15,510 nucleotides of DNA from a virus (lineage: Duplodnaviria > Heunggongvirae > Uroviricota > Caudoviricetes): the IMG/VR virus record IMGVR_UViG_2585427727_000013; one strand, given 5' to 3'. The translations under genes were made by a program, and so were the position numbers. Positions 1-15,134 of the stretch are shown here, in pieces. How positions within the stretch are numbered: the first letter of the stretch is position 1; every line of letters starts with the position of its first letter. Under the pieces are notes generated by a model. The model saw only the letters and a list, made by a program, of their open reading frames with translations. It was not told the DNA's origin and made no database searches.

Positions 1-1089
1 AATGAGAAAATCAGCCAGCAGCGCCGGGATTTGTGGAAGGCGGAGAGTCAGTTCGCGGTACTGGAGGAGGCGGCGCAACGTCGCCAGCTGTCTGCACAGG
101 AGAAATCCCTGCTGGCGCATAAAGATGAGACGCTGGAGTACAAACGCCAGCTGGCTGCACTTGGCGACAAGGTTACGTATCAGGAGCGCCTGAACGCGCT
201 GGCGCAGCAGGCGGATAAATTCGCACAGCAGCAACGGGCAAAACGGGCCGCTATTGATGCGAAAAGCCGGGGGCTGACTGACCGGCAGGCAGAACGGGAA
301 GCCACGGAACAGCGCCTGAAGGAACAGTATGGCGATAATCCTCTGGCGCTGAATAACGTCATGTCAGAGCAGAAAAAGACCTGGGCGGCTGAAGACCTGC
401 TTCGCGGGAACTGGATGGCAGGCCTCAGGTCCGGCTGGAGCGAGTGGAAAGAGAGTGCCACGGACAGTATGTCGCAGGTTAAAAGTGCTGCCACGCAGAC
501 CTTTGATGGTATTGCACAGAATATGGCGGCGATGCTGACCGGCAGTGAACAGAACTGGCGCAGCTTCACCCGTTCCGTGCTGTCCATGATGACAGAAATG
601 CTGCTTAAGCAGGCAATGGTGGGGATTGTCGGGAGTATCGGCAGCGCCATTGGCGGGGCTGTTGGTGGCGGCGCATCCGCGTCAGGCGGTACAGCCATTC
701 AGGCCGCTGCGGCGAAATTCCATTTTGCAACCGGAGGATTTACGGGAACCGGCGGCAAATATGAGCCAGCGGGGATTGTTCACCGTGGTGAATTTGTCTT
801 CACGAAGGAGGCAACCAGCCGGATTGGCGTGGGGAATCTTTACCGGCTGATGCGCGGCTATGCCACCGGCGGTTATGTCGGTACACCGGGCAGCATGGCG
901 GACAGTCGGTCGCAGGCGTCCGGGACGTTTGAGCAGAATAACCATGTGGTGATTAACAACGACGGCACGAACGGGCAGATAGGTCCGCATGCTCTGAAGG
1001 CGGTGTATGACATGGCCCGCAAGGGTGCCCGTGATGTAATTCAGACACAGATGCGTGATGGTGGCCTGTTCTCCGGAGGTGGACGATGA
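1..1089 (+). CDS. H: Tail tape measure protein, C-terminal part (lambda gpH-like); 5' end truncated by the window
   Basis: Frame 1 is open from position 1 (the track's 31..1089 ORF merely starts at an in-frame TTG). Gly-rich C-terminus (GGAVGGGASASGG...GGLFSGGGR) and position immediately upstream of M/L fit lambda H. Stop TGA overlaps the M start (ATGA). Confidence 0.85.
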   Translation, partial: NEKISQQRRDLWKAESQFAVLEEAAQRRQLSAQEKSLLAHKDETLEYKRQLAALGDKVTYQERLNALAQQADKFAQQQRAKRAAIDAKSRGLTDRQAEREATEQRLKEQYGDNPLALNNVMSEQKKTWAAEDLLRGNWMAGLRSGWSEWKESATDSMSQVKSAATQTFDGIAQNMAAMLTGSEQNWRSFTRSVLSMMTEMLLKQAMVGIVGSIGSAIGGAVGGGASASGGTAIQAAAAKFHFATGGFTGTGGKYEPAGIVHRGEFVFTKEATSRIGVGNLYRLMRGYATGGYVGTPGSMADSRSQASGTFEQNNHVVINNDGTNGQIGPHALKAVYDMARKGARDVIQTQMRDGGLFSGGGR

Positions 1090-1415
1090 AGACCTTCCGC
1101 TGGAAAGTGAAACCCGGTATGGATGTGGCTTCGGTCCCTTCTGTAAGAAAGGTGCGCTTTGGTGATGGCTATTCTCAGCGAGCGCCTGCCGGGCTGAATG
1201 CCAACCTGAAAACGTACAGCGTGACGCTTTCTGTCCCCCGTGAGGAGGCCACGGTACTGGAGTCGTTTCTGGCTGAGCACGGGGGCTGGAAATCCTTTCT
1301 GTGGACGCCGCCTTATGAGTGGCGGCAGATAAAGGTGACCTGCGCAAAATGGTCGTCGCGGGTCAGTATGCTGCGTGTTGAGTTCAGCGCAGAGTTTGAA
1401 CAGGTGGTGAACTGA
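1086..1415 (+). CDS. M: Minor tail protein M (lambda gpM-like, 109 aa)
   Basis: 109-aa ORF whose sequence (MKTFRWKVKPGMDVASVPSVRKVRFGDGYSQRAP...) matches lambda gpM as recalled from memory. Translationally coupled to H (ATGA overlap) and to L. Confidence 0.93.
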   Translation: MKTFRWKVKPGMDVASVPSVRKVRFGDGYSQRAPAGLNANLKTYSVTLSVPREEATVLESFLAEHGGWKSFLWTPPYEWRQIKVTCAKWSSRVSMLRVEFSAEFEQVVN

Positions 1416-2113
1416 TGCAGGATATCCGGCAGGAAACACTGAATGAATGCACCCGTGCGGAGCAGTCGGCCAGCGTGGTGCTCTGGGAAATCGATCTGAC
1501 AGAGGTCGGTGGAGAACGTTATTTTTTCTGTAATGAGCAGAACGAAAAAGGTGAGCCGGTCACCTGGCAGGGGCGACAGTATCAGCCGTATCCCATTCAG
1601 GGGAGTGGTTTTGAACTGAATGGCAAAGGCACCAGTACGCGCCCCACGCTGACGGTTTCTAACCTGTACGGTATGGTCACCGGGATGGCGGAAGATCTGC
1701 AGAGTCTGGTCGGCGGAACGGTGGTCCGGCGTAAGGTTTACGCCCGTTTTCTGGATGCGGTGAACTTCGTCAACGGAAACAGAGACGCCGATCCGGAGCA
1801 GGAGGTGATCAGCCGCTGGCGCATTGAGCAGTGCAGCGAACTGAGCGCGGTGAGTGCCTCCTTTGTACTGTCCACGCCGACGGAAACGGATGGCGCTGTT
1901 TTTCCGGGACGTATCATGCTGGCCAACACCTGCACCTGGACCTATCGCGGCGATGAGTGCGGTTATAGCGGTCCGGCTGTCGCGGATGAATATGACCAGC
2001 CAACGTCCGATATCACGAAGGATAAATGCAGCAAATGCCTGAGCGGTTGTAAGTTCCGCAATAACGTCGGCAACTTTGGCGGCTTCCTTTCCATTAACAA
2101 ACTTTCGCAGTAA
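1415..2113 (+). CDS. L: Minor tail protein L (lambda gpL-like, 232 aa)
   Basis: 232 aa, same length as lambda gpL. Conserved Cys cluster near the C-terminus (CTWTYRGDECGYSGP...CSKCLSGC) typical of the gpL Fe-S site. Start overlaps the M stop. Confidence 0.93.
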   Translation: MQDIRQETLNECTRAEQSASVVLWEIDLTEVGGERYFFCNEQNEKGEPVTWQGRQYQPYPIQGSGFELNGKGTSTRPTLTVSNLYGMVTGMAEDLQSLVGGTVVRRKVYARFLDAVNFVNGNRDADPEQEVISRWRIEQCSELSAVSASFVLSTPTETDGAVFPGRIMLANTCTWTYRGDECGYSGPAVADEYDQPTSDITKDKCSKCLSGCKFRNNVGNFGGFLSINKLSQ

Positions 2114-2118
2114 ATCCC

Positions 2119-2862
2119 ATGACACAGACAGAATCAGCGATTCTGGCGCACGCCCGGCGATGTGCGCCAGCGGAGTCGTGCGGCTTCGTGGTAAGCACGC
2201 CGGAGGGGGAAAGATATTTCCCCTGCGTGAATATCTCCGGTGAGCCGGAGGATTATTTCCGGATGGCTCCGGAGGACTGGCTGCAGGCAGAAATGCAGGG
2301 TGAGATTGTGGCGCTGGTCCACAGCCACCCCGGTGGTCTGCCCTGGCTGAGTGAGGCTGACCGGCGGCTGCAGGTGCAGAGTGATTTGCCGTGGTGGCTG
2401 GTCTGCCGGGGTGAGATTCATAAGTTCCGCTGTGTGCCGCATCTCACCGGGCGGCGCTTTGAGCACGGGGTGACGGACTGTTACACGCTGTTCCGGGATG
2501 CTTATCATCTGGCGGGGATTGAGATGCCGGATTTTCATCGCGAGGATGACTGGTGGCGTCACGGTCAGAATCTCTATCTGGATAATCTGGAGGCCACAGG
2601 GCTGTATCAGGTGCCGTTGTCAGCGGCGCAGCCGGGCGATGTGCTGCTGTGCTGTTTTGGTTCATCTGTGCCGAATCATGCCGCCATTTACTGTGGTGAC
2701 GGCGAGCTGCTGCACCATATTCCTGAACAACTGAGCAAACGAGAGAGGTATACCGACAAATGGCAGCGACGCACACACTCCCTCTGGCGTCACCGGGCAT
2801 GGCACGCATCTGCCTTTACGGGGATTTACAACGATTTGGCCGCCGCATCGACCTTCGTGTGA
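2119..2862 (+). CDS. K: Tail tip assembly protein K (MPN/JAMM-like N-terminal part plus NlpC/P60-like C-terminal part)
   Basis: 247-aa ORF starting 5 nt after L. Contains a JAMM-type HSHPGG motif and an NlpC/P60-like Cys/His region (GVTDCYTLF...NHAAIYCGDGELLHH). The historical lambda K annotation of 199 aa would correspond to the internal ATG at 2263. The 3' end overlaps I by 103 nt in another frame, as in lambda. Confidence 0.88.
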   Translation: MTQTESAILAHARRCAPAESCGFVVSTPEGERYFPCVNISGEPEDYFRMAPEDWLQAEMQGEIVALVHSHPGGLPWLSEADRRLQVQSDLPWWLVCRGEIHKFRCVPHLTGRRFEHGVTDCYTLFRDAYHLAGIEMPDFHREDDWWRHGQNLYLDNLEATGLYQVPLSAAQPGDVLLCCFGSSVPNHAAIYCGDGELLHHIPEQLSKRERYTDKWQRRTHSLWRHRAWHASAFTGIYNDLAAASTFV

Positions 2863-3431
2863 AAACGGGGGCTGAAGCCATCCGGGCGCTGGCCACACAG
2901 CTCCCTTCGTTTCGTCAGAAACTGAGCGACGGCTGGTATCAGGTACGTATTGCCGGGCAAGATGTCAGCACGTCCGGATTAACGGCGCAGTTACATGAGG
3001 CTCTGCCTGACGGCGCTGTGATTCATATCGTTCCCAGAGTCGCCGGGGCCAAGTCAGGTGGCGTATTCCAGATTGTCCTGGGGGCAGCCGCCATTGCCGG
3101 ATCATTCTTTACTGCCGGAGCCACCCTTGCAGCATGGGGGGCAGCCATTGGGGCCGGTGGTATGACCGGCATTCTGTTTTCTCTCGGTGCCAGTATGGTG
3201 CTCGGCGGTGTGGCGCAGATGCTGGCACCGAAAGCCAGAACTCCCCGCACACAGACAACGGATAACGGTAAGCAGAACACCTATTTCTCCTCACTGGATA
3301 ACATGGTTGCCCAGGGCAATGTTTTGCCTGTTCTGTACGGTGAAATGCGTGTGGGGTCGCGGGTGGTTTCTCAGGAGATCAGCACGGCAGACGAAGGGGA
3401 CGGTGGTCAGGTTGTGGTGATTGGTCGCTGA
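2760..3431 (+). CDS. I: Tail tip assembly protein I (lambda gpI-like, 223 aa)
   Basis: 223 aa with N-terminus MAATHTLPLASPGMARICLYGDLQRF and Gly/Ala-rich hydrophobic middle, matching lambda gpI from memory. Overlaps the 3' end of K. Confidence 0.9.
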   Translation: MAATHTLPLASPGMARICLYGDLQRFGRRIDLRVKTGAEAIRALATQLPSFRQKLSDGWYQVRIAGQDVSTSGLTAQLHEALPDGAVIHIVPRVAGAKSGGVFQIVLGAAAIAGSFFTAGATLAAWGAAIGAGGMTGILFSLGASMVLGGVAQMLAPKARTPRTQTTDNGKQNTYFSSLDNMVAQGNVLPVLYGEMRVGSRVVSQEISTADEGDGGQVVVIGR

Positions 3432-3450
3432 TGCAAAATGTTTTATGTGA

Positions 3451-3473
3451 AACCGCCTGCGGGCGGTTTTGTC
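3451..3473 (+). terminator. GC-rich hairpin plus T-run between I and J; possible attenuator or weak intrinsic terminator
   Basis: aaccgcc-tgcg-ggcggtt followed by tttt, seen directly in the I-J gap. Confidence 0.4.
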
Positions 3474-3491
3474 ATTTATGGAGCGTGAGGA

Positions 3492-6400
3492 ATGGGTAAA
3501 GGAAGCAGTAAGGGGCATACCCCGCGCGAAGCGAAGGACAACCTGAAGTCCACGCAGTTGCTGAGTGTGATCGATGCCATCAGCGAAGGGCCGGTTGAAG
3601 GTCCGGTGGATGGATTAAAAAGCGTGCTGCTGAACAGTACGCCGGTGCTGGACACTGAGGGGAATACCAACATCTCCGGTGTCACGGTGGTGTTCCGTGC
3701 CGGTGAGCAGGAGCAGACACCGCCGGAGGGGTTTGAATCCTCCGGCTCCGAGACGGTGCTGGGTACGGAAGTGAAATATGACACGCCGATCACCCGCACC
3801 ATTACGTCTGCAAACATCGACCGTCTGCGCTTTACCTTCGGTGTACAGGCACTGGTGGAAACCACCTCAAAGGGTGACAGGAATCCGTCGGAAGTCCGTC
3901 TGCTGGTTCAGATACAACGTAACGGTGGCTGGGTGACGGAAAAAGACATCACCATTAAGGGCAAAACCACCTCGCAGTATCTGGCCTCGGTGGTGGTGGG
4001 TAGCCTGCCGCCGCGCCCGTTTAATATCCGGATGCGCAGGATGACGCCGGACAGCACCACAGACCAGCTGCAGAACAAAACGCTCTGGTCGTCATACACC
4101 GAAATCATCGATGTGAAACAGGGCTACCCGAACACGGCACTGGTCGGCGTGCAGGTGGATTCGGAGCAGTTCGGCAGCCAGCAGGTGAGCCGTAATTATC
4201 ATCTGCGCGGGCGCATTCTGCAGGTGCCGTCGAACTATAACCCGCAGACGCGGCAATACAGCGGTATCTGGGACGGAACGTTTAAACCGGCATACAGCAA
4301 CAACATGGCCTGGTGTCTGTGGGATATGCTGACCCATCCGCGCTACGGCATGGGGAAACGTCTTGGTGCGGCGGATGTGGACAAATGGGCGCTGTATGTC
4401 ATCGGCCAGTATTGCGATCAGTCAGTGCCGGATGGCTTTGGTGGCACGGAGCCGCGCATCACCTGTAATGCCTGGCTGACCACACAGCGTAAGGCGTGGG
4501 ATGTTCTCAGTGATTTCTGCTCGGCGATGCGCTGTATGCCGGTATGGAACGGGCAGACGCTGACGTTCGTGCAGGACCGGCCGTCGGATAAGGTGTGGAC
4601 CTATAACCGCAGTAATGTGGTGATGCCGGATGATGGCGCGCCGTTCCGCTACAGTTTCAGCGCCCTGAAGGACCGCCATAATGCCGTTGAGGTGAACTGG
4701 ACTGACCCGGATAACGGCTGGGAAACGGCAACAGAGCTTGTGGAGGACACGCAGGCCATTGCCCGTTATGGTCGTAATGTCACGAAGATGGATGCCTTTG
4801 GCTGTACCAGCCGGGGGCAGGCACACCGCGCCGGGCTGTGGCTGATTAAAACGGAGCTGCTGGAAACGCAGACCGTGGACTTCAGCGTGGGCGCAGAAGG
4901 GCTTCGCCATGTACCGGGCGATGTTATTGAAATCTGTGATGATGACTATGCCGGTATCAGCACCGGTGGTCGTGTGCTGGCGGTGAGCAGCCAGACCCGG
5001 ACGCTGACGCTCGACCGTGAAATCACGCTGCCATCCTCTGGCACCACGCTGATAAGCCTGGTTGACGGAAGTGGCAATCCGGTCAGCGTGCAGGTCCAGT
5101 CCGTCACCGACGGCGTGAAGGTGAAAGTGAGCCGGGTTCCTGACGGCGTTGCAGAATACAGCGTGTGGGGGCTGAAGTTGCCGACGTTGCGCCAGCGCCT
5201 GTTCCGCTGTGTGAGTATCCGTGAGAACGACGACGGCACGTATGCCATCACCGCCGTGCAGCATGTACCGGAAAAAGAAGCCATCGTGGATAACGGGGCG
5301 CACTTTGACGGCGACCAGAGTGGCACGGTGAATGGTGTCACGCCGCCAGCGGTGCAGCACCTGGCCGCAGAAGTCACTGCAGACAGCGGGGAATATCAGG
5401 TGCTGGCGCGATGGGACACACCGAAGGTGGTGAAGGGCGTGAGCTTCCTGCTCCGTCTGACCGTAACAGCGGACGACGGCAGTGAGCTGCTGGTCAGCAC
5501 GGCCCGGACGACGGAAACCACATACCGCTTCAGGCAACTGGCGCTGGGGCGTTACACGCTGACGGTCCGGGCGGTAAATGCGTGGGGGCAGCAGGGCGAT
5601 CCGGCATCGGTATCGTTCCGGATTGCGGCACCGGCAGCGCCTGTCACTATTGAACTGATACCAGGGTATTTTCAGATAACAGCGGTCCCGAAACTGGCTG
5701 TATATGACCCGACGGTGCAGTTTGAGTTCTGGTTCTCGGAAAAGCGGATTATCGATATCAGGCAGGTTGAAACCAGCGCGCGTTATCTTGGTACGGCGCT
5801 GTACTGGATAGCCGCCAGTAGCAATATTAAGCCGGGTTATGATTATTACTTTTATATCCGCAGCGTGAACACCGTTGGTAAATCGGCATTTGTGGAGGCC
5901 GTTGGTCGGGCGAGCGATGATGCGGAAGGTTATCTGAATTTTTATAAAGGGTTGATCAATAAAACGCATCTCGGCAAGGAACTGCTGGAAAACTTTGAGC
6001 TGACGGAAGATAACGCCAGCAAACTGGAGGAGTTTTCGAAAGAGTGGAAGGACGCCAACGATAAATGGAATGCCATGTGGGGCGTCAAAATTGAGCAGAC
6101 CAAAGACGGCAAACATTATGTCGCGGGGCTTGGCCTCAGCATGGAGGATACGGAGGAAGGCAAACTGAGCCAGTTCCTGGTTGCCGCTAACCGTATCGCG
6201 TTTATTGACCCGGCAAACGGGAATGAAACGCCGATGTTTGTGGCGCAGGGCAACCAGATATTCATGAACGACGTGTTCCTGAAGCGCCTGACGGCCCCCA
6301 CCATTACCAGCGGCGGTAATCCTCCGGCATTTTCCCTGACACCGGACGGGCGGCTGACGGCGAAAAATGCCGATATCAGCGGTAACGTGAATGCGAACTC

Positions 6401-6887
6401 CGGGACGCTCAACAACGTCACGATTAACGAGAACTGCCGGGTTCTGGGAAAACTGTCCGCGAACCAGATTGAAGGCGATCTCGTTAAAACAGTGGGCAAA
6501 GCTTTCCCCCGTGACTCCCGGGCACCGGAGCGGTGGCCATCAGGGACCATTACCGTCAGGGTTTATGACGATCAGCCGTTTGACCGGCAAATTGTTATTC
6601 CGGCTGTGGCATTCAGTGGCGCTAAGCATGAGAGAGAGCATACTGATATTTACTCCTCATGCCGTCTGATAGTGCGGAAAAACGGTGCTGAAATTTATAA
6701 CCGTACCGCGCTGGATAATACGCTGATTTACAGTGGCGTTATTGATATGCCTGCCGGTCACGGTCACATGACACTGGAGTTTTCGGTGTCAGCATGGCTG
6801 GTAAATGGCTGGTATCCCACAGCAAGTATCAGCGATTTGCTGGTTGTTGTGATGAAGAAAGCCACTGCAGGCATCACGATTAGCTGA
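3492..6887 (+). CDS. J: Tail tip central fibre / host specificity protein J (lambda gpJ-like, 1131 aa)
   Basis: 1131-aa ORF (lambda J is 1132 aa) in the conserved position after I. Good SD (tgaggaatg). N-terminus [34 protein letters not shown] is lambda-J-like. Confidence 0.95.
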
Positions 6888-6905
6888 ATTTTATAACCCA
6901 GATAC

Positions 6906-6932
6906 GGGCACCAGAAATGGTGCCTTTTTTAT
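6906..6932 (+). terminator. Rho-independent terminator after J
   Basis: Perfect hairpin ggcacca-gaaa-tggtgcc followed by tttttt. Confidence 0.7.
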
Positions 6933-6954
6933 TGCAGAAAAGCGAGAGGTAATT

Positions 6955-7554
6955 ATGCGTAAATTATGTGCTGTTATTCTGTCCGCAGTAGTCTGGCTGG
7001 TTGCCGCTGGTACGCCAGCGAGCGCAGCAGAGCATCAGTCCACACTAAGCGCCGGGTATCTTCAGACTCATACTGATATGCCAGGCAGTGATGACCTGAA
7101 GGGCATTAACGTGAAATACCGTTATGAATTTACGGACACGCTGGGGCTGGTGACGTCATTCAGTTATGCCAATGCCAAAGATGAGCAAAAAACGCATTAC
7201 AGCGATACCCGCTGGCATGAAGATTCAGTGCGTAACCGCTGGTTCAGCATGATGGCGGGGCCATCTGTACGCGTGAATGAATGGTTCAGTGCTTATGCGA
7301 TGGCAGGTGTGGCTTACAGCCGTGTTTCGACGTTCTCCGGGGATTATCTCCGCGTAACTGACAACAAGGGGAAAACGCACGATGTGCTGACCGGAAGTGA
7401 TGACGATCGCCACAGCAACACGTCTCTGGCGTGGGGAGCTGGCGTGCAGTTTAACCCGACCGAATCCGTGGCCATTGATATTGCTTATGAAGGCTCCGGC
7501 AGTGGCGACTGGCGCACTGACGGTTTCATCGTGGGTGTCGGTTATAAGTTCTGA
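6955..7554 (+). CDS. lom: Lom-like outer-membrane beta-barrel protein (Ail/Lom/PagC family)
   Basis: 199 aa with signal peptide (MRKLCAVILSAVVWLVAAGTPASAAEH), alternating amphipathic beta-strand pattern and C-terminal GVGYKF. Lambda moron position between J and stf, bracketed by terminators. Confidence 0.9.
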   Translation: MRKLCAVILSAVVWLVAAGTPASAAEHQSTLSAGYLQTHTDMPGSDDLKGINVKYRYEFTDTLGLVTSFSYANAKDEQKTHYSDTRWHEDSVRNRWFSMMAGPSVRVNEWFSAYAMAGVAYSRVSTFSGDYLRVTDNKGKTHDVLTGSDDDRHSNTSLAWGAGVQFNPTESVAIDIAYEGSGSGDWRTDGFIVGVGYKF

Positions 7555-7580
7555 TTAGCCAGGTAACACAGTGTTATGAC

Positions 7581-7608
7581 AGCCCGCCGGTTCAGGCGGG
7601 CTTTTTTG
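7581..7608 (+). terminator. Rho-independent terminator after lom
   Basis: Hairpin gcccgcc-ggttca-ggcgggc followed by tttttt. Confidence 0.7.
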
Positions 7609-7618
7609 TGGAGTGGAT

Positions 7619-9997
7619 ATGGCAGCAGTAAAAATCTCAGGTGTGCTGAAAGATGGTGCGGGAAAACCAATACAGAACTGCACTATTCAACTGAAGGCAA
7701 AGCGTAACAGCACCACGGTACTGGTGAACACGGTGGCCTCTGAAAATCCGGATGAAGCCGGGCGTTACAGCATGGACGTTGAGTATGGTCAGTACAGCGT
7801 CATCCTGTGGATTGAGGGTTCTCAGCCATCACATGTTGGGACCATTACCGTCTATGAAGGTTCCAGTCCGGGGACGCTGAATGATTTTCTCGGTGCCATG
7901 ACGGAAGATGATGTCATGCCGGAGGCATTGCGCCGTTTTCAGGCAATGGTGGAAGAAGCGGCACGCAACGCCGAAGCCGCCTCTCAGAGCGCAGCGGCGG
8001 CAAAGAAATCCGAAACTGCAGCGGCATCATCGAAGAACGCGGCGAAAACCTCAGAAACGAATGCAGCTAATAGTGCACAGGCGGCAGCGACCTCAAAGAC
8101 TGCATCGGCAAACTCCGCGACAGCAGCCAAAAAATCAGAAACCAACGCGAAAAATAGCGAGACAGCCGCAAAGACGAGCGAAACCAACGCAAAGTCCAGC
8201 CAGACGGCAGCGAAAACCAGCGAAACGAATACCAAAGCCAGTGAAACTGCGGCGAAAAACAGCCAGGATGCAGCGGCCCAAAGCGAGAGTGCCGCAGCTG
8301 GTTCTGCAAGTGCGGCGGCTTCTTCTGCCACTGCATCAGCCAACAGTCAAAAAGCTGCAAAAACCAGCGAAACTAACGCAAAGTCCAGCCAGACGGCAGC
8401 GAAGACCAGCGAAACGAATGCCAAAGCCAGCGAAACTGCGGCGAAAAACAGTCAGGATGCAGCAGCCCAAAGCGAGAGTGCTGCAGCTGGTTCTGCAAGC
8501 GCGGCGGCTGCTTCTGCCACTGCATCAGCCAACAGTCAAAAAGCAGCAAAAACCAGTGAAACCAATGCAAAGACAAGCGAGACTGCAGCGGCGAACTCGG
8601 CGAAAGCATCGGCAGCAAGCCAGACAGCAGCTAAAGCAAGTGAAGACGCAGCCAGAGAGTATGCAAGTCAGGCAGCAGAGCCGTATAAATATGTCTTACA
8701 GCCACTGCCTGATGTGTGGATACCATTTAACGATTCACTGGATATGATTACGGGCTTTTCGCCATCTTATAAAAAGATTGTTATTGGTGACGACGAAATA
8801 ACGATGCCTGGTGACAAGGTGGTTAAGTTTAAACGCGCATCAAAAGCAACTTACATTAATAAATCTGGTGTGCTGACAGAGGCTACCATTGACGAGCCAC
8901 GATTTGAACGTGATGGCCTGCTTATTGAGGGGCAAAGAACGAACTTCTTCCCGAACAGTACAGACCCTTCGAAGTGGAATAAGTCAACTTCACTGGACGT
9001 TACAGAAACAGGCACAGATAGTTTCGGTTTTAATTATGGCCGGTTTGTCGTACAGGATTCGATTGTTGGTACAAGTAAAGCGCATACCATTATCGGACTG
9101 TATTCGAGTACCGGAGGGGTTGATACTTCAGGGGACGAAAAGTATGTAACTATATCCTGTCGGGTAAAAAGTGAAGTTGATAATATCGACGTTCGTATTT
9201 TATTTGAACATTATGATGGGGAGGTAAGGACATCAATAGGAACAGCAAGCCTGAACCTTACCACCCGCATAATTAGCAAGACAGGTCAGACAAGCCGTGT
9301 TACAGCAAGGTCTGTTAAGGATGATGCAACTGGCTGGATATTTTTTGAGGCTACATTAAAAGCAGATACAACAGAAAATACGGTTGGTGGTTTCGTCCAG
9401 TATTCTCCGGATACAGGTCAGATGGTGGCATCAGGGGATTGTCTCGATGTAACCACTCCCCAGATTGAGGCTGGTACAGGCGCATCATCTTTTATTGTTA
9501 CGGGGGCTGCACCGGTAACGCGGGCAAGCGATATAGTTACAGTCCCAATTAAGAATAATCTTTATAATCTACCTTTTACGGTTCTTTGTGAGGTACATAA
9601 GAACTGGTATAAAACGCCAAATGCAGCACCGCGTGTTTTTGATACCGGCGGTCATCAAACCGGAGCGGCTATTATTCTTGGCTTCGGTTCTTCAGCAGAT
9701 TACGACGGATTTCCTTATTGCGATATTGGTGGGGCTAACAGGCGGATAAACGAAAATGCATCGCTTGAAAAAATGGTTATGGGGATGCGTGTAAAGTCAG
9801 ATCAGTCTACATGCGCAGTAAGTAACGGGCGTATATCCAGCGAAACAAAAACCACATGGTCCTGTATTCAGAACTCCGCAATTATCCGTATTGGAGGCCA
9901 GACTACAGCCGGTTTACGCCATTTATTTGGTCATGTCAGGAATTTCAGAATATGGCACAAGGCATTGACTGATGCTCAGGTGGGGGAGTTAATCTAA
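7619..9997 (+). CDS. stf: Side tail fibre protein, mosaic: lambda-Stf-like N-terminus, Ala/Ser/Thr/Lys-rich repeat shaft, and a non-lambda AT-rich C-terminal module ending in a LamG/concanavalin-like motif
   Basis: The track ORF starts at GTG 7613, but the ATG at 7619 has an SD (ggag, 5-nt spacer) and gives MAAVKISGVLKDG..., matching the lambda Stf N-terminus. Shaft carries SETNAK-type short repeats and a 63-aa tandem duplication. C-terminus ...RIGGQTTAGLRHLFGHVRNFRIWHKALTDAQVGELI resembles the end of LamG-type domains. Confidence 0.85.
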   Translation: MAAVKISGVLKDGAGKPIQNCTIQLKAKRNSTTVLVNTVASENPDEAGRYSMDVEYGQYSVILWIEGSQPSHVGTITVYEGSSPGTLNDFLGAMTEDDVMPEALRRFQAMVEEAARNAEAASQSAAAAKKSETAAASSKNAAKTSETNAANSAQAAATSKTASANSATAAKKSETNAKNSETAAKTSETNAKSSQTAAKTSETNTKASETAAKNSQDAAAQSESAAAGSASAAASSATASANSQKAAKTSETNAKSSQTAAKTSETNAKASETAAKNSQDAAAQSESAAAGSASAAAASATASANSQKAAKTSETNAKTSETAAANSAKASAASQTAAKASEDAAREYASQAAEPYKYVLQPLPDVWIPFNDSLDMITGFSPSYKKIVIGDDEITMPGDKVVKFKRASKATYINKSGVLTEATIDEPRFERDGLLIEGQRTNFFPNSTDPSKWNKSTSLDVTETGTDSFGFNYGRFVVQDSIVGTSKAHTIIGLYSSTGGVDTSGDEKYVTISCRVKSEVDNIDVRILFEHYDGEVRTSIGTASLNLTTRIISKTGQTSRVTARSVKDDATGWIFFEATLKADTTENTVGGFVQYSPDTGQMVASGDCLDVTTPQIEAGTGASSFIVTGAAPVTRASDIVTVPIKNNLYNLPFTVLCEVHKNWYKTPNAAPRVFDTGGHQTGAAIILGFGSSADYDGFPYCDIGGANRRINENASLEKMVMGMRVKSDQSTCAVSNGRISSETKTTWSCIQNSAIIRIGGQTTAGLRHLFGHVRNFRIWHKALTDAQVGELI
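8189..8566 (+). repeat. In-frame tandem duplication inside stf: 2 x 189 bp (63 aa), near-identical
   Basis: Unit starting gcaaagtccagccagacggcagcg occurs at 8189 and again at 8378 with only a few substitutions. It explains the spurious Arg/Lys/Gln-rich ORFs in other frames. Confidence 0.9.
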
Positions 9998-10278
9998 TGA
10001 AAGATTTAACACTCAAATTTGTCGACAGGGCCGACTTTTCGGCCTTTATGGAGAGCATTGGCTATTATGATGACGAGTCGATGCAGGATGATATTCTTAT
10101 TGACGTGATAGGTAATGTGTACAAAGAAACCGGAGAACTTACTGAAGATGGCGAGCCGGTATGTGTTAAGGAGGACGGATATTTTGTAAGCGTGCGCATC
10201 ATTAATGATGCAAAAAAATCGTCAATATTCGATAAATACGCGATTGTTGTTGAGCATCAACTTCGTGGCTGGATGTGA
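9997..10278 (+). CDS. Hypothetical acidic 93-aa protein, translationally coupled to stf
   Basis: Start ATG overlaps the stf stop (TAATG). AT-rich. No motif I can recognise. Confidence 0.5.
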   Translation: MKDLTLKFVDRADFSAFMESIGYYDDESMQDDILIDVIGNVYKETGELTEDGEPVCVKEDGYFVSVRIINDAKKSSIFDKYAIVVEHQLRGWM

Positions 10279-10287
10279 GGGAGACAA

Positions 10288-10992
10288 ATGGCTACATCGA
10301 CAGTAATTCCTGATGACATCAAAACGCTAAAGGGAGATGTCAGTAAAGCCAAGGAAGATATTTCCTCAATTAACGGAAAAGTATCAACGCTTCAGACTGA
10401 TATGACCAGTGCAAAGCAGGATATCAGCTCCAGATACACAAAAACTGAAGTTGATAATAAGCTGAAAAACAAACTGGAAGTGAACGCTCTGGAAAGCGGT
10501 CGTTATGGTGGAGATTTTTACCCGCTGACTGGCCGTGAAGCGTTTTATTTGTGGGGATTGGGCACGACTACAGCGGCGGCAAACCTTTATCTTAATCCTG
10601 ACTCCGCAATTTCGTCTGTACTGCGGTCAACATCGTCTATCCGCTATAAAGATTCAGTAGAGACAATAGATTCAGAGCACGCCGATCTCATTTTCAGGAT
10701 GCGCCCTGTGTGGTACAGGTCGCAATGCGAAAATGACAGGCGTGACTGGGGATTCTACGGATTGATTGCCGAGGAAGTAGGAGAAATTGCCCCTCAGTTT
10801 GTACACTGGCGACCAGCTAACGAGAATGATGCTCCTGAAGCTATTTCCAGCAATGGCCTTGTTGCCGAAGGTGTAATGTACGAACGTCTGGTTGTTCCAC
10901 TGATTCACCATATCCAGAAACTGACTGAAAGAGTTGATGAACTTGAGTCAGAATTAAAGCTGTTATCAACTTCCCGAAGCGATATCGGATAA
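10288..10992 (+). CDS. Short fibre-like protein with a C-terminal peptidase-S74 intramolecular chaperone domain (234 aa)
   Basis: SD gagggag upstream. N-terminal heptad-like repeats (DIKTLKGDVSKAKEDISSINGKVSTLQTDMTSAKQDISS). C-terminal half matches the S74 pattern as I recall it: S-S-I-R-Y-K at the expected autocleavage site, then RPVWYR, GLIAEEVGEIAPQFV, and a terminal coiled coil (IQKLTERVDELESELKLL). Confidence 0.6.
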   Translation: MATSTVIPDDIKTLKGDVSKAKEDISSINGKVSTLQTDMTSAKQDISSRYTKTEVDNKLKNKLEVNALESGRYGGDFYPLTGREAFYLWGLGTTTAAANLYLNPDSAISSVLRSTSSIRYKDSVETIDSEHADLIFRMRPVWYRSQCENDRRDWGFYGLIAEEVGEIAPQFVHWRPANENDAPEAISSNGLVAEGVMYERLVVPLIHHIQKLTERVDELESELKLLSTSRSDIG

Positions 10993-11002
10993 AGGAGGAG
11001 TA

Positions 11003-11296
11003 ATGGATATAAGCCCCTTACTTCATGCACTTTGTGCTGTGGCTGCGCAGACACTGGTTGGTCTTTTTACCGGAAACTGGGCTTACGGAGCGATAGCCGG
11101 TTGTGCGTTCTTCATTGCGCGTGAACACACCCAGGCAGAATATCGCTGGATTGAAATGTTCGGGCATGGCAAGCGAATGAATATGCCGTGGTGGGGCGGT
11201 TTTGATCCGCGCGCGTGGGATGTGGCAAGCCTGATGGATTTTGCTGTGCCGGTGGTGGCGTGTCTGCTGGTCTGGCTGTTGGTTAATCGTGGGTGA
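11003..11296 (+). CDS. Hypothetical small membrane protein (97 aa, hydrophobic N- and C-terminal segments)
   Basis: Strong SD (aggagg). Hydrophobic stretches LLHALCAVAAQTLVGLFTGNWAYGAIAGCAFFIA and FAVPVVACLLVWLLV. Third gene of the compact cassette after stf. Confidence 0.5.
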   Translation: MDISPLLHALCAVAAQTLVGLFTGNWAYGAIAGCAFFIAREHTQAEYRWIEMFGHGKRMNMPWWGGFDPRAWDVASLMDFAVPVVACLLVWLLVNRG

Positions 11297-11306
11297 AAAA
11301 AGGTGA

Positions 11307-11435
11307 GCTGTATATGCAACGGAGGAAGAAACCTCGTTGCGGGAAGCCTGGAAGAAGTATCGGGTGTTGCTGAACCGTGTTGATACATCAACTGCACCTG
11401 ATATTGAGCGGCCTGTGAACCCTGTCAGGGAGTAA
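11307..11435 (+). pseudogene. tfa: 3' remnant of a tail fibre assembly gene (tfa): last ~40 codons only, no start
   Basis: Frame translates ...[39 protein letters not shown], matching the lambda Tfa C-terminus (...[24 protein letters not shown]...) from memory. An in-frame stop lies immediately upstream at 11304-11306. Confidence 0.6.
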
Positions 11436-11486
11436 TCATTGGGATTATGCCGCAGCACGTCTTAAGCAAGAACGTGCTGCGGTTGG
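11316..11486 (+). repeat. Direct repeat copy 1 (~170 bp): tfa 3' end plus downstream hairpin
   Basis: About 90% identical to 12365-12536 by eye. Confidence 0.85.
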
Positions 11487-11498
11487 ATGCTATTTTTT
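11450..11498 (+). terminator. Perfect 11-bp-stem hairpin with downstream T-run after the tfa remnant; possible terminator for the stf operon
   Basis: ccgcagcacgt-cttaagcaaga-acgtgctgcgg (11450-11482), then tttttt at 11493-11498. A degenerate copy lies inside repeat 2 near 12507-12536. Confidence 0.45.
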
Positions 11499-12158
11499 CC
11501 CTGAAGCGGAAAACATTACTACAGTACCTTGAACCTTGGTTTTAACATTCTCGAAATGCTCTGAGAGTATATGTGTTAAGCCTTCTTCGGAATCTTTTGT
11601 GTTTGAAAAGATGCCTTTCTGATTGTAAATGCGCATCAGTTTTTGACCGAAGCTATTGTGCACAACTCCATCGCCAAGAATTGTGGCTCCGTATAGAGTT
11701 CCATCGTCAGTTAAGGCCTGCGCCGCATTGCGTATTACACAGCTTTTTGTAGATATATTTCCAGGCAGGCAGTGAAGAAGGTAAAACATGGAAATGGAAT
11801 CAAATTGACCATGTAACGTCGCGGGATAAGGTTCAAAAACATCATGGCTAATTTTATGTTTAATTTTTGATTCCCCAGCCCTTGTAGATGCCGCGTTCAG
11901 GCTAGCTTCGTTCAAATCCATTAAAGATATCAGACTACTCTCAGGTACGTGAGTAAGGTAAAACCCAGTTCCAACACCAATATCCAGATGGTTGTTACCT
12001 AAATGTTCCAGAAAGTGTGGAAGAAGGTGTTCCTTTGTAGGACATCCCCATGCAAGCCGATTTGATACTCCCAAAACCCACCAGTCATAAAGCTTTAGGG
12101 TAAGTGGTGTGTAAATTTTAGCCCCATCATCTGTGTTTTTTTTCATTAATTTCACCAT
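11490..12158 (-). CDS. Class I SAM-dependent methyltransferase (moron), substrate unknown
   Basis: 222-aa ORF on the minus strand with SAM-binding motif I (LDIGVGTGFY) and an acidic post-motif region. Low GC relative to tail genes. An SD-supported alternative start is the fifth codon (ATG at 12146). Confidence 0.7.
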   Translation of the reverse strand: MVKLMKKNTDDGAKIYTPLTLKLYDWWVLGVSNRLAWGCPTKEHLLPHFLEHLGNNHLDIGVGTGFYLTHVPESSLISLMDLNEASLNAASTRAGESKIKHKISHDVFEPYPATLHGQFDSISMFYLLHCLPGNISTKSCVIRNAAQALTDDGTLYGATILGDGVVHNSFGQKLMRIYNQKGIFSNTKDSEEGLTHILSEHFENVKTKVQGTVVMFSASGKK

Positions 12159-12214
12159 GTTATAGTTTTATTTGTGAATTAAATCAATTACGGCGATGAA
12201 TTACAAGGGGTTAA

Positions 12215-12484
12215 ATGCTGCCGCAGCATAGCGATATTGAAATAGCCTGGTATGCTTCGATACAGCAGGAGCCGAATGGCTGGAAGACCGTCACCACACA
12301 GTTCTACATCCAGGAATTCAGTGAGCATATTGTGCCACTTCAGGATGCTGTAGATCTGGAGATCGCAACGGAGGAAGAAAACTCGTTGCTGGAAGCCTAG
12401 AGGAAGTATCGGGTGTTGCTGAACCGTGTTGATACATCAACTGCACCTGATATTGAGTGGCCTGCAAATCCTGTCAGGGAGTAA
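12215..12484 (+). pseudogene. tfa: 5'-truncated tfa fragment with an in-frame TAG (TGG to TAG) at 12398-12400
   Basis: Track ORF 12215..12400 ends ...SEHIVPLQDAVDLEIATEEENSLLEA*. The same frame continues [27 protein letters not shown] to 12484, matching the lambda Tfa C-terminus with W replaced by a stop. No Tfa N-terminal region is present. Confidence 0.65.
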
Positions 12485-12536
12485 TCATTGGGATTATGCC
12501 GCAGACACGTCGTATGCAGGAACGTGCTGCGGTTAG
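12365..12536 (+). repeat. Direct repeat copy 2 (~170 bp): tfa 3' end plus downstream imperfect hairpin
   Basis: Aligns with 11316-11486 base for base with scattered substitutions. Confidence 0.85.
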
Positions 12537-12600
12537 TTTGTGAGCTTTCGATAGTGCGAGTATTGAATGATTTCCAGCCGTTACCGATTTTACGTGCTAA

Positions 12601-12849
12601 TTAGTGAACAAACCACTCGTCAGCAGACTCCCAGGTATCTTTCAGAGTTTCCTGAACAAAAGTTTTAGCTGAATCTTTATCGGCGGTGCGCGTAACAGAA
12701 AGGCCATCGTTGCTGGTGGCTTTTACGATCACCTCTACATCGTCATAACGTTTACTGATGCGTCGGGTTAATTCTTCCTTTAACGCATCCACAGCACCGG
12801 TTGGCATTTTAGTCATTTTTTCTTTGGCTATGCAGATTTCAATACGCAT
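12601..12849 (-). CDS. dinI: DinI-like DNA-damage-inducible protein (82 aa)
   Basis: [11 protein letters not shown]...[11 protein letters not shown] has the DinI-family pattern (MRIE..IAK...GA.DAL..EL.RRI...TWESAD.WFV) as I recall it for E. coli DinI. SD agaggga. Two LexA boxes immediately upstream. Confidence 0.8.
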
Positions 12850-12862
12850 AAAAGTCCCTCTA

Positions 12863-12910
12863 TACTGTGTTTGTATACAGTGTTATTTTTAACTGTATGG
12901 ATAAACAGTG
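12863..12910. promoter_or_regulatory. Two tandem LexA (SOS) boxes in the dinI promoter region
   Basis: Box 1 at 12863-12882: taCTGTgtttgtatACAGtg. Box 2 at 12891-12910: aaCTGTatggataaACAGtg. Both fit CTGT-N8-ACAG. They lie 14-61 bp upstream of the dinI start codon and directly abut the integrase stop. Confidence 0.7.
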
Positions 12911-14008
12911 TCAAGAGGTCTTATTTCTGCTCTTTTGGAGCTCTTCAAAACGATTATGTAAAGATTTCGGATACAGTTCGGTATATACCTGCCATAGCAC
13001 GTTTAATGAACGATGTCCTGTAACTTGGGCGACTTCCTCAATACTAAAACCAGCCTCAAATAAGCGACTTGCCCCTTCTCTACGCAAATCATGGTATCGC
13101 AGATCTTTAATACCTAATTTGCTTCTTACCCTCTGAAATCCCGCAGTAACAGAAGTGCTGTTATATGGAAAAATGAATTCCGATTTTTGGGGCTGTCGTT
13201 GGACGATATCCCAGGCTTCCCCAAGCAAGGCTACTTTCATGTGGTTGCCTTCCTTTTTGCGTGGATCTTTCCTGTCTCTTACGAGTATAGATTTTTGTTC
13301 CTGGTCGAGATCTTCCCATCGTAACCGGCATACTTCTCCGATTCGCATACAGGACCACACAGAAAATTTGAGGATATCAACGAACGGAATTTTTGAGCAT
13401 TTATGAGTAGATCGTTGTTGAAGGCCTTCAATGAGCATGTCCAGTTCATCAGATGCTGGTCTACGATTACGACGGTTTGATTTACCAATCAAACCAAGTT
13501 TAAGTAGATATGGACGAGCGCTTTTCGCCGGGTTTGATGTGTAATTAATTCCGTATACAGGTTTAGCCGCATCCAGAACACTGCCAAGATAACTAACATC
13601 GTGGCTGACTGTTGCTGGACCTGCACCAGCGTTGTTTCTTAGCCTACAATGTTCAATTACGTCATTTTCTGTCAGTTCGGATAGTTTGATCGCGGAGATG
13701 TCACTATCCATAAGCAGTTCCAGCACATATCTTTTAGTACGACCTGCTTTACCTCCGGCATTTGAGTCATTTAAATATTTGTGTAGTAAGTCACGGACTG
13801 TAAGTCCGTCAACTGCATTTGATGATGGAATGCCATATAGATCTAATTCCATTACTTTCTGTGTACCCCATGTTTTGGCATGGGCATGTTTAGGGAATGT
13901 TTTGCTTTCCCTGTAAGTGATAACACCTTTTTCTTTGATAATCACATTACAGCGATAGCGTGGTGTGCCATCGGATTTTAGTCGTTTCTCTATGTTATAG
14001 TACGCCAT
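12911..14008 (-). CDS. int: Tyrosine-type site-specific integrase (dusA-associated integrase type)
   Basis: 365 aa with a C-terminal catalytic region carrying an HxxR box (RYHDLRREGASRLF) and ...VTGHRSLNVLWQVYTELY with the candidate nucleophile Tyr. 5' end is 88 bp from the dusA start, divergently oriented. Confidence 0.9.
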   Translation of the reverse strand: MAYYNIEKRLKSDGTPRYRCNVIIKEKGVITYRESKTFPKHAHAKTWGTQKVMELDLYGIPSSNAVDGLTVRDLLHKYLNDSNAGGKAGRTKRYVLELLMDSDISAIKLSELTENDVIEHCRLRNNAGAGPATVSHDVSYLGSVLDAAKPVYGINYTSNPAKSARPYLLKLGLIGKSNRRNRRPASDELDMLIEGLQQRSTHKCSKIPFVDILKFSVWSCMRIGEVCRLRWEDLDQEQKSILVRDRKDPRKKEGNHMKVALLGEAWDIVQRQPQKSEFIFPYNSTSVTAGFQRVRSKLGIKDLRYHDLRREGASRLFEAGFSIEEVAQVTGHRSLNVLWQVYTELYPKSLHNRFEELQKSRNKTS

Positions 14009-14096: not shown

Positions 14097-15134
14097 ATGC
14101 ACGATAATCCTGAAACACAGAAAACTAATCAAACCAGCGTGATGCCTGAGAAAACTGACGCTTACGGGAGCTCTCGGTTTAGCATTGCTCCTATGCTCGA
14201 CTGGACGGACAGACATTGCCGCTATTTCTTGCGTCTGCTTTCCCGCAATACGTTGCTGTATACCGAAATGGTGACCACAGGGGCGATTATTCACGGTAAA
14301 GGTGATTATCTGGCGTACAGTGAAGAAGAACATCCGGTAGCGTTGCAACTCGGCGGTAGCGATCCGGCGGCGCTGGCGCAGTGTGCGAAGCTGGCAGAAG
14401 CGCGCGGATATGATGAGATCAACCTGAATGTCGGCTGCCCGTCTGACCGGGTGCAGAACGGCATGTTTGGGGCGTGTCTGATGGGTAATGCGCAGCTGGT
14501 TGCCGACTGCGTGAAAGCGATGCGCGATGTGGTGTCGATTCCGGTGACGGTGAAAACGCGTATTGGAATCGATGACCAGGACAGCTATGAATTTCTCTGC
14601 GATTTCATCAACACCGTTTCCGGCAAAGGCGAGTGTGAGATGTTCATCATCCACGCACGTAAAGCCTGGCTTTCTGGGTTAAGCCCGAAAGAAAACCGTG
14701 AAATCCCGCCGCTCGATTATCCGCGTGTGTATCAACTGAAGCGTGACTTTCCGCATCTGACGATGTCGATTAACGGTGGCATCAAGTCGCTGGAAGAGGC
14801 TAAAGCGCATTTGCAACATATGGATGGCGTGATGGTCGGGCGCGAAGCGTATCAGAATCCAGGCATTCTGGCGGCGGTAGACCGAGAGATCTTTGGTTCT
14901 TCGGATACCGATGCCGATCCGGTGGCGGTGGTGCGTGCCATGTATCCGTACATTGAGCGTGAACTCAGCCAGGGGACGTATCTCGGCCATATTACCCGGC
15001 ATATGCTGGGCTTGTTCCAGGGTATTCCTGGCGCGCGGCAGTGGCGGCGTTATTTAAGTGAAAATGCCCATAAAGCGGGTGCTGACATTAACGTGCTGGA
15101 ACACGCGCTCAAACTGGTGGCAGATAAGCGTTAA
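14097..15134 (+). CDS. dusA: tRNA-dihydrouridine synthase A
   Basis: 345-aa Dus-family protein with the catalytic-Cys motif ([21 protein letters not shown]). Followed by pspG, as in the E. coli chromosome. Confidence 0.9.

Follow-up and report, generated by a model that had tools for sequence, protein, structure and literature searches.

Why would a lambdoid prophage carry a solitary methyltransferase gene between two broken tail fiber assembly (tfa) genes, and what would its product methylate? The question is raised by a 15,510-nt stretch of viral DNA (IMG/VR record IMGVR_UViG_2585427727_000013; the whole stretch is hereafter called the window), which covers the right arm of a lambdoid prophage, complete at 47.7 kb and integrated at dusA, and is 100% identical to Escherichia coli chromosomes of O166:H15 type. 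An open reading frame (ORF) of 222 codons is present on the minus strand at window positions 11490-12158, and it is a genuine gene, the intact allele of ybcY (RefSeq WP_000239886.1; PHROG 2132). Genes of the ybcY type are already annotated and named, are extremely common, and belong to a familiar kind, prophage cargo. Taken as a whole, the evidence makes it probable that intact ybcY is a self-contained prophage cargo gene encoding a probable small-molecule, rather than DNA, methyltransferase. Beyond the first-pass annotation, in which a model working from the letters alone had described an orphan methyltransferase carried as a moron, the analysis identifies the gene as ybcY, places its start probably four codons further in, and finds its family to be mostly chromosomal, yet also borne on plasmids and pathogenicity islands.

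The assignment to the stand-alone ('orphan') class I S-adenosylmethionine (SAM)-dependent methyltransferases, which the first-pass annotation had proposed, is supported by both sequence motifs and the predicted fold. SAM motif I (LDIGVGTG) lies at residues 58-65, with G61, G63, and G65 near-invariant in 106 family representatives, and the Pfam models Methyltransf_12, _23, _25, and _11 all scored above their cut-offs. D81, located at the end of strand 2 in the usual ribose-binding position, is strictly invariant in the family, and D106 (in HDVF), at the motif III adenine-binding position, is invariant among close homologues. The AlphaFold2 model (mean pLDDT 89.6) displays a Rossmann-like seven-strand fold built as a single minimal domain of 218 residues, in which two N-terminal helices (18-36 and 41-52) precede strand 1 and are taken to cap the active site. 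The ratio of nonsynonymous to synonymous substitution rates (dN/dS) was 0.09-0.20 against Citrobacter, Enterobacter, Klebsiella, and CFT073 alleles, and 0.29 against a near-identical O157 allele, a value resting on two substitutions; the window protein is under purifying selection.

The true start codon is probably the second ATG, the fifth codon of the ORF at 12146, which would yield a protein of 218 residues. Homologues, nearly all of which are ~218 residues long, begin at ORF residue 5, as does the PHROG 2132 profile (E 2.9e-156, with ORF residues 5-222 matching profile positions 1-218 of 218), the only PHROG family found for the methyltransferase and one labelled 'unknown function'. In CFT073, an ACG codon replaces the first ATG, and the coding sequence is annotated from the second. 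The second ATG is kept in the five intact loci compared, and the first is not conserved. A Shine-Dalgarno-like GGTGA is present at 12156-12152, 5 nt before the ATG at 12146. Because of the homologue and profile starts, the CFT073 ACG codon, and this upstream GGTGA, the YbcY-family methyltransferase is likely to be encoded at 11490-12146 on the minus strand (218 codons plus stop), an assignment that also draws on dN/dS and the fold model. The four extra codons of the maximal ORF and the RefSeq model (MVKL; 12147-12158, minus strand) are probably 5′ leader as we read the sequence.

The same locus is known from E. coli K-12, where the ybcY of DLP12 has 99.1% DNA identity with the window gene (K-12 DHB4), the same position between two tfa remnants (tfaD'-ybcY'-tfaX'), and identical promoter hexamers. 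The two copies differ in setting, as DLP12 is a remnant at argU and the window copy resides in a complete prophage at dusA, and in state, as the window copy is intact and the K-12 copy is annotated as a pseudogene, 'putative SAM-dependent methyltransferase'. The K-12 gene is a pseudogene because a 2-nt deletion eliminates the conserved start ATG and causes a frameshift (about 6620-6630 of the extracted K-12 DHB4 locus, aligned to window 12144-12146). Literature searches by gene name and protein accessions yielded no functional study of ybcY.

Of 5426 complete E. coli genomes, 3832 carry ybcY at 95% DNA identity or more, some in as many as four copies. ybcY is also present at 98% identity or above in 15 lambdoid phage records and occurs in 166 IMG/VR viral contigs, and homologues of the window protein number 2296 at E ≤ 1e-3. 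The full-length protein cluster contains 6589 member sequences and the truncated ones a few hundred. Its flanks vary, with Mn-catalase/ferritin-like cargo adjoining it in O157 and ompT in CFT073 and phage ev243, and a further copy lies in a prophage stump adjoining potB; the exact 2.1-kb arrangement of the window is common to only 19 genomes.

How the gene came to lie where it does can be read from its flanks, which encode the last 39 and the last ~89 residues of Tfa, in agreement with the first-pass placement between tfa remnants. The left remnant (11316-11435, plus strand) retains the last 39 codons by translation and is a RefSeq pseudogene, 'tail fiber assembly protein, missing N-terminus'. 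The right remnant (12215-12484, plus strand) is tfaX-like, is likewise a RefSeq pseudogene, keeps ~89 codons from the end of the gene, interrupted by an in-frame TAG at 12398-12400, and gives a match to PHROG 2341 and a weaker one to PHROG 105 (tail fiber assembly; E 1e-5). A repeat search and pairwise alignment revealed that the two sites share a direct repeat of ~170 bp on the plus strand, comprising the tfa 3′ end and a hairpin, with its left copy at 11316-11484 and its right copy at 12365-12534; two repeat families were recovered, with 94% and 90% identity and a spacing of 1049-1050 nt. The methyltransferase stop lies ~5 nt from the end of the ~170-bp repeat, and the unique DNA between the repeat homologies is ~727 bp, equal to the ORF plus ~55 bp upstream. 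This ~55-bp upstream region is invariant in an alignment of six unrelated genomic contexts. As a side observation, the Rfam family RF02111 'IS009', a candidate E. coli small RNA, matches 12238-12441 on the plus strand with 120.4 bits (gathering score 117); the match overlaps the right tfa pseudogene fragment and is divergent from the methyltransferase promoter, and the Rfam family may simply be a tfaX remnant.

A synthetic empty junction, made by joining 11003-11455 to 12505-12900, was matched against E. coli genomes. The junction was recovered as one uninterrupted match of 848 bp at ~96% identity in six such records among those listed (NZ_CP103559.1, for example). At least 80% of the junction was covered in 60 genomes, with two-piece cover in nine of those listed, and we estimate that ~50 genomes hold empty sites; the window's own arrangement matches the junction in two pieces. 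The match to the empty site delimits a 1,050-bp unit (11485-12534) that is either present or absent and comprises, besides the methyltransferase gene and its promoter region, the second tfa fragment. The existence of an exact empty site in related prophages implies that the unit comes and goes through homologous recombination in tfa sequence, and such recombination would account for the spread of ybcY among lambdoid prophages.

The GC content of the methyltransferase gene is 40.7% (GC3 35.9%) as compared to 56.7% for the tail genes at 1-7554, which bears out the low GC reported in the first-pass annotation. The distal arm from ~8600 to 14000 is also 39-48% GC, including the adjacent dinI-like and integrase genes (42-44%), and low GC is therefore not peculiar to the methyltransferase gene. 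The gene does lie on the opposite strand to the late operon, as had been stated, and it shares this strand with the dinI-like and integrase genes. The earlier description of ybcY as a moron is supported in the strict sense of the term, as ybcY lies in a 1,050-bp unit that is missing from related prophages, has a candidate promoter region of its own, and is of foreign base composition. On this view, ybcY would be prophage cargo that is complete in itself and sits at the end of the prophage nearest the integrase gene.

Independent, low-level transcription of ybcY in the lysogen is probable. Genomic systematic evolution of ligands by exponential enrichment (SELEX) with K-12 DNA located binding sites for both the RpoD holoenzyme and H-NS between ybcY and tfaX (PMC3946193). 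That study assigned to ybcY the hexamer pair TTGATT and TATAAC (PMC3946193), and identical hexamers are present in the window as a candidate sigma-70 promoter on the minus strand (12159-12187), with TTGATT at 12187-12182, a 17-nt spacer, and TATAAC at 12164-12159. Given holoenzyme binding, the H-NS site, and the identity of the hexamers, ybcY is probably transcribed independently, at a low level damped by H-NS. An alternative candidate (12178-12206, minus strand) was found in the sequence and is conserved in the alignment; it consists of TTGTAA at 12206-12201, a 17-nt spacer, and TTTAAT at 12183-12178, and is predicted to yield a leader of ~25 nt that includes the Shine-Dalgarno sequence. A consensus promoter scan found no promoter for the methyltransferase gene. 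The scan missed the first candidate because it demands a T at the last -10 position, and the hexamers were found by eye and from the literature.

Transcription from elsewhere is also conceivable. Two perfect CTGT-N8-ACAG LexA-box palindromes were seen between the dinI-like gene and the integrase gene, at 12865-12880 and 12893-12908, and the window as a whole contains three matches to this pattern as compared to 0.21 expected. The palindromes imply SOS control of the dinI-like gene, and it is possible that read-through from this upstream, same-strand gene adds to ybcY transcription at the time of an SOS response. At the other end, an inverted repeat with an 11-bp stem lies 7 nt past the methyltransferase stop (11450-11482), and the RNA of the minus strand folds there with -25.1 kcal/mol (z = -5.1). 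This hairpin is the terminator of the left tfa remnant, probably serves both strands, and may terminate methyltransferase transcription as well.

What the enzyme would methylate is best approached through its nearest relatives of known function. By sequence, the best Protein Data Bank matches were juvenile hormone acid methyltransferase (JHAMT; E 1.4e-5 with a profile) and UbiG. By structure, all of the top 50 Foldseek matches were small-molecule, lipid, or natural-product methyltransferases, led by the phospholipid N-methyltransferase PmtA (8ys9; E 5.8e-12), JHAMT, SgvM, and PfPMT. The protein groups by sequence and fold with JHAMT, UbiG, CysG/BelI, and PmtA, at an identity of no more than 21% and with no specific match. 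CysG and BelI, whose sequences were taken from the supplement of PMC11408123, are carboxyl O-methyltransferases of 3-isopropylmalate and 3-sec-butylmalate, and they and JHAMT have the same fold and a similar size. An hhalign comparison to CysG/BelI (97.6% probability) placed H129-C130 of the window protein on their His-His pair, such that H129 aligns with the first His of their His-His-Asp metal motif (H122, H123, D191) and the second His is replaced by C130; H129 also aligns with the His of the JHAMT 'LHW' motif. D189 is invariant in the family and would at most be a candidate counterpart of CysG D191, as the C-terminal part of the alignment is unreliable. CysG/BelI and JHAMT further differ from YbcY in that identity to them is at most 21% and no biosynthetic cluster surrounds ybcY.

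Within the family, only D81, H129, G157, and D189 are strictly invariant in the 106 representatives, which have 31-56% identity, and Y16, Y24, D25, W37, C39, H57, C130, K138, and N186 are nearly invariant. The substrate pocket would probably be formed by the Tyr/Trp-rich N-terminal helices together with the invariant H129 and D189 and the near-invariant C130, C39, and H57. From sequence and model we infer that the enzyme would methylate a small molecule and not DNA, in line with the first-pass view that a non-DNA substrate is more likely and with nearest sequence and structure neighbors that are mostly small-molecule or lipid methyltransferases. Our best guess is methylation of a small acidic or amphipathic molecule, the most likely reaction being O-methylation of such a metabolite or xenobiotic, possibly with the assistance of a metal.

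Several observations weigh against this account of ybcY as cargo with a small-molecule substrate. ORF clustering across ~70 loci from other species found no conserved gene neighbor, and hence no pathway context, with only lineage-specific synteny (an SDR/ydfG-like gene, an amidotransferase, a crotonase, and CorA). Domain fusions were uninformative as well, since the N-terminal extensions of 10 longer relatives carried no Pfam domain, bar one eukaryotic RCC1 gene-model fusion. The names of the family clusters gave no functional clue. The SELEX evidence was obtained in vitro and for K-12, with hexamers that are computational assignments, and a U-tract after the hairpin is absent on the methyltransferase strand. 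The dead K-12 copy and the circulating truncated alleles indicate that the gene is dispensable in the laboratory. Finally, the family is basic (median isoelectric point 8.9), a property that would equally suit RNA or an anionic membrane as substrate.

The last point is compatible with two other substrates. In one alternative, YbcY would methylate RNA (tRNA or rRNA) or protein, acting in the lysogen on the translation machinery of the host or on some other macromolecule. We consider this unlikely: JHAMT, UbiG, and the entire Foldseek top 50 are small-molecule, lipid, or natural-product enzymes, the minimal 218-residue single domain has no extra RNA-binding domain, and the NCBIfam search produced no match to a named RNA or protein methyltransferase family. 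In the other, the protein would be a PmtA-like phospholipid N-methyltransferase converting phosphatidylethanolamine towards phosphatidylcholine in the lysogen membrane. The top Foldseek match is indeed the R-type PmtA of Rubellimicrobium thermophilum (8ys9; TM 0.61), which has a similar length, and the family shares with PmtA a basic character and a Tyr/Trp-rich N-terminal helix (PMC11446283). In PmtA, a catalytic Tyr10 works with His117, Ser120, and His147 around the head-group pocket (PMC11446283); alignment of the window protein to 8ys9 by sequence gave no confident result. A weak NCBIfam match to the Legionella-type PmtA and the homologue that adjoins a choline transporter gene in Erwinia plasmids point the same way. 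However, the window protein fails the PmtA family model (NF045882, 16 bits against a cut-off of 390), and we consider a PmtA-like role very improbable. The rhodoquinone biosynthesis methyltransferase RquA was also tried as a candidate and rejected (NF038261, 17 bits against a cut-off of 175), and the NCBIfam search as a whole brought up no model close to its cut-off.

Two further explanations were considered. YbcY could be a functionless relic that hitch-hikes in widely fixed prophage remnants such as DLP12, as would fit the K-12 copy inactivated by its 2-nt start-codon deletion, the truncated alleles (a 161-residue cluster with 445 members and a 130-residue cluster with 30), and the H-NS site in the promoter region. 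A K-12 ybcY deletion also behaved like wild type in one reported assay (PMC2408971), in a strain whose allele was already dead. Set against this are a dN/dS of 0.17-0.20 even against close alleles (CFT073, Citrobacter), ORFs that stay intact in prophage remnants stripped of nearly all else (CFT073, YZMc17-1), the 6589 members of the full-length cluster, and conservation of the family at 50% identity or above from Enterobacterales to Pseudomonas and Dyella, and on balance we find the relic explanation improbable. That YbcY is a DNA methyltransferase, either an orphan or one half of an unnoticed restriction-modification or anti-restriction system, would suit a phage-borne, SAM-dependent enzyme with a marginal PADLOC match to mad2 (E 0.0033, 14 bits), but is exceedingly improbable. 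A regular-expression search found neither a (D/N/S)PP(Y/F/W/H) motif nor a PCQ motif, confirming the absence of DPPY-type and PCQ motifs described in the first-pass annotation, and the 'ENV' found at residue 203 stands alone, with no PCQ to accompany it. Neither the Pfam and NCBIfam results nor the top structural neighbors included a DNA methyltransferase family, and classification, the check that the first-pass annotation had suggested, returned generic Pfam methyltransferase models and PHROG 2132. No restriction or toxin gene adjoins ybcY, as had been reported, and none is annotated in the entire 47.7-kb prophage; the pairing that was named as evidence to the contrary, a DNA methyltransferase with a restriction gene hidden elsewhere in the prophage, is not seen in the prophage annotation. 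PADLOC gave nothing significant for the methyltransferase and no match of any kind for the neighboring genes, and the chromosomal homologues are stand-alone genes. Orphan Dam-like DNA adenine methyltransferases of phages are likewise phage-borne, SAM-dependent, and without a restriction partner, and one such N6-adenine enzyme is already aboard elsewhere in the same prophage; in contrast to these, ybcY has no DPPY-type motif, and its product bears no resemblance to DNA methyltransferases. Sequence evidence, as far as it goes, excludes DNA methylation, restriction-modification, and known defense systems, and prophage cargo encoding a small-molecule methyltransferase remains our preferred explanation.

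Outside the prophages, chromosomes carry relatives with 50-65% identity as stand-alone genes; the hosts include Salmonella, Enterobacter, Yersinia, Proteus, Erwinia, Pantoea, the Pseudomonas syringae group, and Dyella, among others. A collection of species-representative genomes contained 527 matching stretches for relatives, and in a 50%-identity protein library the family comprises 419 clusters at E ≤ 1e-30, with members as far afield as fungi and Planctomycetes. The family is also carried by 761 plasmids, of which 603 are from Klebsiella, 38 from Prescottella equi, and 34 from Erwinia, and another copy is present on a Salmonella plasmid-like contig. The Klebsiella pneumoniae protein WP_011251259.1 (BAH65943.1) has 65% identity to the window protein over its full length, keeps all motifs, and is likewise encoded by a stand-alone mobile-element cargo gene divergent from its neighbor. 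It differs in its carrier, being located on IncFIB/HI1B virulence plasmids adjoining rmpA-rmpD-rmpC and peg-344. The gene with 65% identity is divergent from rmpA in both Klebsiella plasmids inspected, which are hypervirulence plasmids. In the literature, the Klebsiella gene has served solely as a statistical marker for liver-abscess strains (PMC5126061), and Mycobacterium tuberculosis Rv1405c is cited in a Klebsiella paper as an analogy only. Two paralogues of the family were observed ~9 kb apart on Klebsiella hypervirulence plasmids (5272-5979 and 14410-15063 of the extracted locus), and in another extracted locus the 65%-identical paralogue (6995-7648) is directly divergent from the rmpA-rmpD-rmpC mucoidy locus.

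A more distant full-length homologue, pVAPA_0470 (32% identity, E 4e-33), is encoded on the vap island of Rhodococcus equi, and it too is mobile-element cargo divergent from a regulator gene, virR. It has been annotated as a SAM-dependent methyltransferase without known function (PMC5434932). Unlike the window protein, pVAPA_0470 has a degenerate motif I (GARSAW rather than GVGTG) and has lost the acidic residues where the window protein has D81 and D106, and by its sequence it may no longer bind SAM and may be a catalytically dead relative. One Prescottella equi plasmid of this kind, pVAPA2287, was inspected and has its homologue at 7001-7726 of the extracted locus. In an Erwinia pyrifoliae plasmid of the pEA29 type, the homologue (5001-5660 of the extracted locus) adjoins a choline (BCCT) transporter gene, and on pEA29-type plasmids of Erwinia a homologue lies near thiOSGF and methionine ABC transporter genes. 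Salmonella and E. coli contigs contain a recurring trio made up of a family methyltransferase (61-79% identical), an 80-residue ORF without domain match, and a PerC-family regulator gene; this trio is found in mobile-element-like contexts, with transposase fragments, together with autotransporter or Afa/Dr adhesin genes.

These settings suggest a broader explanation, in which YbcY-family methyltransferases would be a recurrent host-adaptation factor on unrelated mobile elements of animal and plant pathogens, all acting by one shared chemistry. The carriers would be the lambdoid prophages of E. coli, the Klebsiella hypervirulence plasmids (rmpA), the R. equi vap island (virR), the Erwinia pEA29-type plasmids, and the E. 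coli and Salmonella contexts with PerC-family genes, adhesins, and an autotransporter. One possibility for the chemistry is a metal-assisted His-Cys-Asp site that methylates, and so neutralizes or modifies, a host-derived or envelope small molecule. We regard this unified host-adaptation explanation as quite unlikely.

The gain from the cargo-gene reading lies chiefly in annotation, as an anonymous 'class I SAM-dependent methyltransferase' is linked to ybcY and its likely start corrected, and a mode of movement is shown, that of a 1,050-bp unit between tfa repeats. Identification of the substrate would raise the importance of the gene, which is intact in ~70% of complete E. coli genomes and has close relatives that adjoin key virulence regulators on Klebsiella and Rhodococcus mobile elements. 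As K-12, the main strain of E. coli biochemistry, has a dead copy, work in that strain would have overlooked any YbcY activity. This inactive allele and the repeated place of the family beside virulence regulators make the substrate question the more worthwhile.

The remainder of the window follows the order of a lambdoid right arm, with the end of the tape measure gene, the tail tip genes, J, lom, and the side tail fibre gene, followed by two small ORFs, an ORF with a tail-fibre domain, a 97-residue ORF, and the first tfa fragment. After these come the methyltransferase gene, at the integrase-proximal end of the prophage, the second tfa fragment, the dinI-like gene, the integrase gene, and dusA. 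The integrase gene is located at the tail-fibre end of the prophage and not beside the early genes. A 5′ fragment of dusA (2039-2143 of the extracted locus) is present at the far end of the prophage, and intact dusA (14097-15134) adjoins the integrase gene, an arrangement that fits integration into the 5′ end of dusA. The 97-residue ORF (11003-11296, plus strand; PHROG 1443, unknown function) appears hydrophobic by eye and is possibly a membrane protein. It directly follows the tail-fibre-domain gene, occupying the position expected of the N-terminal portion of tfa, and candidate roles for it are a chaperone substitute, an exclusion protein, or another moron. The N-terminal protein of the side tail fibre (7613-9997, plus strand) contains a long Ala/Ser/Thr/Lys-rich tract of 'SETNAK...' repeats, especially at 7900-8750, and this tract is the cause of the strong AT-skew peak (up to 0.6) in the composition profile.

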